64,000 nucleotides of DNA from Eledone cirrhosa. Its lineage: Eukaryota. This document shows positions 8,328-8,818 of this stretch, piece after piece. The notes below the pieces were generated by a model, which ran no database searches, was not told the DNA's origin, and was given only the letters and a program-made list of their open reading frames with translations. Numbering within the stretch: position 1 is the stretch's first letter; every line of letters begins with the position of its first letter. Where the stretch lies: NCBI GenBank assembly GCA_964016885.1, contig OZ024750.1, forward strand, positions 45,756,001-45,820,000, in the 5' to 3' direction. Position numbers and translations under genes: made by a program.

Positions 8328-8818
8328 AAGATAAGCAGAACAAGTAAAATTCAATCAACTTTTTAAAATACATTAAAAAAATAATATAAATATTTACCTC
8401 TTCTAGTGGCCCTTACTGATCAGTTTCGCTTTGTAAAACCTCATAAATCCGATGGATTTCTGATGGAAAACCAAAGCTCATCAGAGAAGCATTTTCCTTT
8501 CCTAGGGCTAAACGTCCCAGGAACGATAAAATATATGACCTCCTGCGAGCTAATACAGATCTGAAAGGTCGTAAAAGTGACCCGTATGTAAACTGGACCG
8601 AAGTAAAAGCGGGAAAACCATAGACTTGTTGTCTACAATACTACTAAAAAATAGCGGCTAAATAGAACAACCGATTTGTTCTCAACATAACGGAGTATAA
8701 TGAATGAAATTAATATGTCCAAGGATACTAGGTACCCCTAGAAATACATAGGTTGTCTATGATTCAAGGTTGTTCAATGGTATTAATTTGATATACCAGA
8801 ACTTTAATATGAAGATAA
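8328..8818 (-). mobile_element. Family F: one complete ~484-nt unit with short terminal redundancy, in (TA)n
   Basis: Starts and ends with aagataa (8328, 8812). Diverged homolog of the 38485-39237 unit, e.g. gttcaatggtattaatttgatatacc. Confidence 0.75.
8409..8490 (-). ncRNA. Type-I hammerhead ribozyme (family F)
   Basis: Minus: UUCU-CUGAUGA-GCUUUG(...)CAAAGC-GAAA-CUGAUCAG-UA-AGGG; canonical core, 6-bp stem II, palindromic stem III, GUA site. Confidence 0.8.

Follow-up and report, generated by a model that had tools for sequence, protein, structure and literature searches.

Metazoan non-LTR retrozymes, as two papers describe them (PMC7229834; 10.64898/2026.07.22.740005), are AT-rich tandem repeats without coding capacity that have a single type I hammerhead in every unit; they are dispersed as monomers, dimers and multimers, and PLE mobilisation and circular templates have been proposed for them. 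The class, its PLE link and the circular-template idea are already in print (PMC4209133, PMC7229834, 10.64898/2026.07.22.740005), as is a proposal of PLE copying from a circular template of more than one unit (PMC4209133, PMC7229834). In Xenopus, where retrozymes are homologous to PLE pLTRs, only one of nine dimers cleaved (Li et al. 2026, 10.64898/2026.07.22.740005). The hammerheads of PLEs are type I, form covarying families in one genome and have a palindromic helix III that has been read as dimer-acting (PMC4209133). EN+ PLEs such as PAc Poseidon show partial tandems with an inverted, 5'-truncated second arm, a tail at one end, a pair of starts inside the element on the 3' side of its hammerhead, and AT-rich or (TA)n targets (PMC11167929, PMC8557442, PMC3846280), and the partial tandem, inverted copy and one-sided tail make up the PLE pattern (PMC8557442, PMC3846280). 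For one PLE, PAc, internal initiation of reverse transcription was shown in vitro, with two internal starts and two-strand extension, and in that system cleavage was dispensable (PMC11167929). Chlamys MRC1-type elements are non-autonomous PLEs with pLTRs and multicopy head-to-tail insertions (PMC8557442).

The window analysed here, 64,000 nt of Eledone cirrhosa contig OZ024750.1 (positions 45,756,001 to 45,820,000), holds a truncated copy of a non-coding hammerhead repeat family of about 485 nt, very probably a non-autonomous PLE (metazoan non-LTR retrozyme) copied in trans. Like metazoan non-LTR retrozymes, the family has a hammerhead per unit, dispersed tandem units and no coding capacity; like non-autonomous EN+ PLEs, it has a fixed 3' end with 5' truncation and a pLTR, an inverted second copy, a tail at one end and a (TA)n target. 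Its covarying type I hammerheads with a palindromic helix III resemble those of PLEs, and its head-to-tail insertions those of the Chlamys elements. The unit of 481-525 nt is longer than the 150-450 bp given in PMC7229834 and lies inside the 51-972 bp of 10.64898/2026.07.22.740005. Its stem II of 50 nt is unlike that of metazoan non-LTR retrozymes, and insertion ends and termination sites are mapped here and not in the available parts of those two papers. Unlike the Xenopus retrozymes, this repeat showed no homology to a PLE pLTR, and no parent was found for it, in the two PLE families compared; unlike EN+ PLEs, it has no ORF; and unlike it, the Chlamys elements resemble their autonomous partners at the 3' end and mostly have no hammerhead (PMC8557442). 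No description of the family was found in the openly accessible literature searched. The role of the hammerhead in PLEs and the copying of retrozymes from circles or multimers are questions that the family can address directly, since it offers more than 1,000 copies, nine lineages, natural ribozyme variants, mapped starts and a stop zone that depends on the lap, with a candidate enzyme present in the genome as well.

Layout of the window copy and its family

The window copy (8323..8818) is a single-armed insertion of lineage A whose RNA sense is the minus strand, with the fixed RNA 3' end at the low coordinate and the truncated 5' end at 8818. Its two aagataa motifs, at 8328-8334 and 8812-8818, lie 484 nt apart, so that the full unit of about 484 nt bounded by them in the earlier note stands; because the fixed end includes about 5 nt, ATATT, common to the TA flank, the length is one 484-nt unit plus 7-12 nt. 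The (TA)n target flanks run from 7856 to 8326 on the left and from 8815 to 8850 on the right, where a target-site duplication, longer than 4 bp when retrozymes have one, is not readable. The fixed end, joined to (TA)n through the ATATT microhomology (8323..8328, minus strand), is start site 1, the presumed start of reverse transcription, 86-91 nt 3' of the predicted cut. Between cut and site 1 lies a predicted hairpin, H1 (8333..8404, minus strand; z -2.9), which is present in the RNAalifold consensus of 17 copies.

The type I hammerhead (8409..8490, minus strand) consists of stem I (8485-8490 with 8409-8413), CUGAUGA (8484-8478) and GAAA (8427-8424), with the cut predicted between 8414 and 8413. 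Its 50-nt stem II (8428..8477, minus strand) has a proximal helix, GCUUUG/CAAAGC, an internal loop and a distal 11-bp hairpin (8464-8454 with 8450-8440). Helix III is the self-complementary ACUGAUCAGU (8415..8424, minus strand), replaced in other lineages by ACUGUACAGU, ACCGAUCGGU, ACCGUCGGU and ACCGUUCGGU. The pattern match at 8414-8484 on the minus strand places the ribozyme inside the copy and not at its end, as first read. The unit position of start site 2 (370-386) is internal here (8697..8706, minus strand) and an outer end in other copies. The stretch from site 2 to site 1 is the tail, about 105-110 nt long, compared with 30-40 nt in EN+ PLEs and about 84 nt in the Hydra element of this genome. 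Its predicted hairpins (8715..8802, minus strand), H3 at 8715-8747 and H2 at 8772-8802, form with unit positions 1-75 the best conserved portion of the unit. On the RNA-sense strand TTTCCCGC occurs at unit positions 286-289 (window ~8605-8617) in six of ten reference copies, about 130 nt upstream of the ribozyme; it resembles an E2F motif, and we take it to be a possible promoter element.

Exact matches to the start motifs number 1,327 and 425 in the 3.0 Gb genome, and matches to the hammerhead pattern 1,463, with 0 in the reversed controls. The family takes in more than 1,400 hammerhead matches across at least nine lineages, in tandems of up to 7.4 units. The window copy has 104 genome matches, the full-length ones 92-96% identical, while the unit at 38.5 kb has 70, the long ones 84-92% identical; ten natural reference copies are mutually 70-95% identical. 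In these ten the longest ATG ORF of a trimer is 26-92 aa and its length is not conserved. The repeat is present in the contigs of one sequencing run, which are of unstated kind; viral contigs gave 0 matches to it. A tRNA-derived SINE was rejected, simple consensus searches of the ten reference copies having found no pol III A or B box; so was a plant LTR retrozyme (type III hammerhead, two LTRs, 4-bp TSD), the hammerhead being type I and the partial tandems not LTR pairs.

The insertion at 38.5 kb (38485..39238, minus strand) belongs to lineage B of the same family. It holds 1.5 units of 494 nt, starts at site 1 in (TA)n, and carries two hammerheads (38575-38643 and 39070-39138) in two units that are 92% identical. 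Lack of collinearity between the two loci had been named beforehand as what would undo their comparison; the window copy is collinear with 38490-38987 at 70% identity over 506 columns (BLAST, MAFFT; E 4e-50) and aligns as well with the partial second unit. The fixed end of the window copy is, as proposed, the unit position at which the 38.5-kb element ends, the latter reading AGATGAG there. The sequences from which a stem II change of GCC/GGC to GCUUUG/CAAAGC had been read are present, but only the second 38.5-kb copy has GCC/GGC, the first having GCC/GGU. The helix III sequences quoted with it are also present, but the 4-bp helix drawn from them, closed by a 1- or 2-nt loop, cannot form within a single RNA molecule. 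Helix III is either 3 bp with a 3-4 nt loop or a self-complementary 10-mer pairing two ribozymes. Between the window copy and the 38.5-kb copies it shows one two-sided change. Proximal stem II shows two, at bp 3 (C-G to U-A) and bp 6 (A-U to G-C), and two G.A mismatches become U-A pairs; the bulk of the covariation is in the distal stem II hairpin, which the earlier note had missed.

Conservation of the predicted hammerhead

The type I hammerhead pattern matches the window three times (8414-8484, 38575-38643 and 39070-39138), always on the minus strand, and 0 times in 100 shuffles. No hammerhead family is among the 150 of 247 Rfam matches listed for the whole window, and neither of the two Rfam matches to the unit alone is a hammerhead; the 50-nt length of stem II probably explains why Rfam misses it. 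Folded by energy, the ribozyme region took up other structures (z -0.88 for the window copy), RNAfold gave no full hammerhead, and RNAalifold recovered helix III alone. The whole unit folds with z -4.9.

The comparison among copies supports a predicted self-cutting RNA fold kept by paired sequence changes. Nine clusters of at least four sequences, the lineages, took in 171 of the 183 ribozyme sequences, the 12 in smaller clusters being left out of the lineage analysis. None of the 11 catalytic core columns varies across the nine lineages, against 19 of 37 unpaired non-core columns (p 0.0017), a test with some bias because the search motif contained the core letters with at most 3 mismatches per segment. 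Among 21 hand-picked lineage representatives 92.2% of cells pair, compared with 33-46% in slid controls, and two-sided cells number 34 against 14.3 in shuffles (0/500), a control that ignores relatedness. Two-sided changes occur in 7 of 26 stem pairs of these representatives (in stem II, two of the six proximal pairs and four of the 11 distal ones). About eight are independent when counted on a tree built without the ribozyme columns: 23-69 (twice), 26-66, 36-57, 37-56, 38-55, 40-53 and 77-82. Two of five covariation measures were no better than shuffles (pairs with two-sided change, 199/500; pair types, 497/500), and the split of lineage stem changes into 12 that keep and 11 that break a pair did not differ significantly from the 30 and 58 of private mutations (p 0.15). 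The selection on ribozyme structure proposed earlier is supported by the invariant core and the excess of two-sided cells, with the keep/break test falling short of significance.

Helix III is self-complementary in seven of nine lineages and nearly so in the remaining two, a central AU-to-UA swap included. With its 3 bp and loop it is not minimal as in the PLE hammerheads of PMC4209133, and helix II differs from theirs in its long covarying extension. The G10.1-C11.1 pair, highly conserved in those hammerheads, is kept in only three of nine lineages here and lost in six, which have U.U, A.C or A.G; cleavage may therefore be weak.

Downstream of the cut, three hairpins appear in the RNAalifold consensus of 17 copies. 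Read on the minus strand they contain 109 G-U cells compared with 12 A-C cells, which argues that the minus strand is the RNA. Their two-sided covariation, H1 included, does not exceed shuffles (27-133 of 500), and the corresponding hairpins of the 38.5-kb copy are no better folded than its shuffles. Bases directly downstream of the cut can pair either within stem I or with GCUU beside site 1, lengthening H1 (alignment A2, columns 3-6/115-118); such alternative pairing could possibly act as a switch between cleavage and RT loading.

Start sites, arm ends and the form of the template

Loci were taken in chromosome order from motif searches, so that length was not a selector, and each needed the site-1 motif. 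After three neighbouring or duplicate matches were dropped, 119 loci remained, comprising 70 single-armed, 42 two-armed and 7 complex insertions. The starts fall into two clusters, site 1 at unit 475-7 and site 2 at unit 370-386. Single-armed insertions start at site 1 in 57 cases, at site 2 in 10 and elsewhere in 3, and lack terminal inverted repeats. The two-armed ones combine site 1 with site 2 in 34 cases, site 1 with itself in one and site 2 with itself in another, the other 6 falling outside these classes; site 1 is thus paired with site 2 in 34 of 36 assignable insertions (p 1e-8). Both of their outer ends are RNA 3' ends, the opposite ends are variable, and junction listings place the copies in (TA)n. 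Reverse transcription from a fixed start point, as the earlier note had it, agrees with the starts mapped at these 119 loci, except that there are two sites rather than one. In most lineages the distance from the cut to site 1 is 86-92 nt, compared with 85-92 nt for the first PAc start (by subtraction from PMC11167929); in lineage C it is about 125 nt. The extra bases of lineage C are in the H1 apex, so local structure and not distance appears to set site 1. In the L221:862-1440 region an arm stops exactly at the predicted cut and a perfect palindromic fold-back follows; in L178 and L211 the fold-back is at the helix III palindrome.

The exact unit length of the window copy, offered earlier as evidence, did not hold up as such. 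Seven of 96 site-1 arms end within 12 nt of the unit boundary (11 ends where 6.0 were expected, p 0.04 without correction), and the length of this copy marks no more than the point at which copying broke off, somewhere in the wide region of elevated termination that follows a lap. For the lap analysis 18 site-2 loci were included as well, giving 172 arms in all. Site-1 arms have 33 ends in 4,503 nt of the first quarter after one lap and 17 in 9,092 nt of the same sequence in lap 0 (p 2e-6), or 0.73 against 0.19 per 100 nt, about four times as many. The 47 nt before the second cut hold 18 ends in 1,920 nt against 9 in 5,568 nt before the first (0.94 against 0.16 per 100 nt); both the quarter-lap and the pre-cut interval were chosen after inspection of the data, and the latter is AT-rich. 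Of 46 site-1 arms that complete a lap, 33 stop within the next quarter, and the window copy is of this kind. Site-2 arms alone show a weaker, non-significant rise (p 0.08). Ends do not pile up exactly at the cut (1 against 1.8 expected), and a run-off model therefore needs trimming back to AT microhomology. This second-lap stop zone, together with the mixed evidence on the form of the template, is a useful quantitative addition of the present analysis.

Sixty-eight of the 172 arms exceed one unit, most of them by a fraction. These lengths agree with the circular or multimeric template that had been suggested, although the evidence between circle and multimer is mixed and some arrays grew in DNA. 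Most often the template was probably a linear RNA, a little over one unit in length, that had partly cleaved itself and had a hammerhead cut as its 5' end; it is favoured for most copies because only such an RNA predicts a stop zone ending at the second cut. Circles or multimers likely gave rise to the longer arrays, and duplication in DNA at a later time to some of them. In the proposed sequence of events the minus strand would be transcribed, and a PLE RT-endonuclease, probably of the Hydra clade, would bind the hairpins 3' of the ribozyme, nick (TA)n on one or both strands and prime internally at site 1 and/or site 2. The RT would then read on through the nearest ribozyme, whether intact or nicked, and in many cases come to a stop near the next cut. 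A once-cut template might be a cut monomer, whose ends stem I holds together for the RT to cross in a single jump, or a dimer in which only the upstream ribozyme has cut, and copies of it would be capped at about 1.18 units. The fullest version joins weak cutting by the hammerhead, once-cut linear RNA as the usual template, and long arrays from dimeric or trimeric circles whose ribozymes were skipped. We hold it tentatively, with a low probability of being right in all its parts. If true, it would provide evidence from a genome that the ends of PLE templates are set by hammerhead cleavage, and that the circles retrotransposed include multimeric as well as monomeric ones.

The same PLE enzyme may instead have copied a covalently closed monomer circle lap after lap, one-lap stops being collisions with the RT's own anchored cDNA, an explanation that is possible if doubtful. 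It accommodates the 92 of 105 site-1 arms that are longer than 0.2 unit, and hence past the first cut, and the 9 of 172 arms that reach at least 2 units, up to 7.4; circles, moreover, have been shown in other animal retrozymes (PMC7229834). Insertion-private variants at 202 loci point the same way, 528 being confined to a single pass, 73 present in every pass and 19 in some but not all. Variants common to all passes imply that most insertions started from units identical to one another, as expected of either a monomer circle or a homogeneous multimer, but they may also reflect unsampled homogeneous masters, and one double private variant was found at a second locus. No excess of A-to-G changes (A-to-I editing) singles out the shared variants (4 of 43 shared, 35 of 398 unshared), which lends a circle no help. 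In-register similarity of the arms was not found as a general trend among 28 two-armed insertions, same-lap arms being closer than other-lap passes in 6, not closer in 19 and tied in 3, as a monomer circle would have it. What such a circle does not predict are two insertions, L008 and L186, with unit-specific variants in register on both arms (same-lap differences 2/652 and 2/630, other-lap 14/852 and 10/792), and arrays with periodic variants. In two 4-unit arrays, L117 and L297, variants recur in units 2 and 4, a period of 2, and in the 7-unit array L250 a CpG change recurs in units 2 and 5, a period of 3. Under the weakly cutting hammerhead these periods would arise because the arrays came from dimeric or trimeric circles. 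The recurring variants of L117 and L297 are at the same stem II position (unit position 137), and both turn an A.G mismatch into a pair.

Alternatively, the arrays may be satellite-like: PLE-inserted single pieces lengthened in DNA by unequal exchange or slippage, their arms homogenised by gene conversion, so that array length would say nothing about the RNA template. As a general account this is unlikely, and at one locus it describes what happened. In the array at L353, which grew by DNA duplication, 2 sites distinguish units 1 and 2, and these units have variants in common that the partial units on either side lack. Because at least one array grew in this way, tandem arrays alone are no proof of rolling-circle copying. 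At L175 three units of one arm carry a variant absent from the opposite arm. No master for the variants of L117, L297 and L008 was found elsewhere in the assembly, and gene conversion and DNA duplication are therefore possible sources of them. Lengthening in DNA leaves the fixed ends, the pairing of site 1 with site 2 and the covariation unexplained, however, and with most over-length arms exceeding one unit only by a fraction it accounts for just part of the long arrays.

It is less probable still that second-lap stops mark a transcription start, or a PLE-protein roadblock on the hairpins of the next unit, with the hammerhead kept for binding and not for cleavage. The lack of end pile-up at the cut, the amplification of lineages with U.U, A.C or A.G at 10.1-11.1, and PAc insertion in vitro that was unaffected by ribozyme mutants (PMC11167929) would all agree with a binding role. 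Against it, all 11 catalytic core positions are invariant in nine lineages while their unpaired neighbours vary, the helix III palindrome survives an AU-to-UA swap, and the L221 copy folds back exactly at the cut. A fixed 3' end, variable 5' truncation and inversions fit LINE-driven elements too, but a LINE-mobilised SINE, or a DNA transposon of MITE or Helitron type, is highly improbable given the lack of pol III boxes and of terminal inverted repeats noted above and the two alternative internal 3' ends, RNA 3' ends on both outer ends and head-to-tail partial tandems, which are PLE features.

Candidate enzyme and neighbouring features

Two kinds of PLE are abundant in the genome. A Neptune-like PLE has 11,698 candidates, with top matches 67-81% identical; in the window it is represented by a 5'-truncated fragment at 40142-41200 with C-terminal GIY-YIG motifs (piece 40356-40823). 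A Hydra-clade PLE, assigned by its DKT, CxCX5C, CxxC and CxH motifs in comparison with PMC8557442, has 75,130 candidates with open frames of up to 816 aa, and further Hydra-like families are present at 30-58% protein identity. Nine of ten Hydra-clade copies end in a hammerhead of their own, different from that of the repeat, followed by one of two fixed ends in (TA)n: six copies stop about 47 nt past the cut and three about 130 nt past it. By eye, the short end reads TTAATAT like site 1, and AACTT is found in both long ends. By end geometry and target, the Hydra-clade PLE is the best partner candidate. The unit has no similarity beyond AT-rich noise to the 3' ends of two PLE families, one Neptune-like and one Hydra, and no PLE ORF is joined to the 5' end of an arm in the 24 loci examined. 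Three other leads to a partner were rejected: a 2.8-kb spacing turned out to reflect duplication of local DNA, other elements were nested between the two site-2 ends of a 6.2-kb pair, and mutual matches beyond the truncated ends were other repeats.

The window itself contains a 3' end of this Hydra-clade autonomous PLE (a pLTR with a long tail), a two-armed palindromic insertion in (TA)n at 37507-37995 whose arms each carry a type I hammerhead (37695 on the minus strand, 37807 on the plus), the same sequence that ends nine of ten Hydra copies. A diverged relative of the Hydra-type hammerhead end lies at 35422-35664, its hammerhead at 35572 on the plus strand. Elsewhere in the genome a nest in (TA)n (L281, G000:C1:156342500-156351000) has tail pieces of the ~485-nt repeat family at both ends and, in its interior, a two-armed Hydra-clade PLE together with a hammerhead repeat of 467 nt. 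At L146:~50-140 one more type I hammerhead, with an extended stem II and a sequence of its own, probably belongs to a further family.

Several minor features of the window complete the picture. ORF fragments at 11183-11893 and 60303-61347 resemble, by eye, the C-termini of non-LTR retrotransposons, and two pieces scanned from them gave no relevant Pfam match. A long near-perfect inverted repeat at 36833-36942, directly after a TA tract, is possibly a short two-armed remnant of another family. Finally, two-copy tandem repeats of 105 and 196 nt lie at 6061-6271 and 30759-31162 and are presumably SINE-like.
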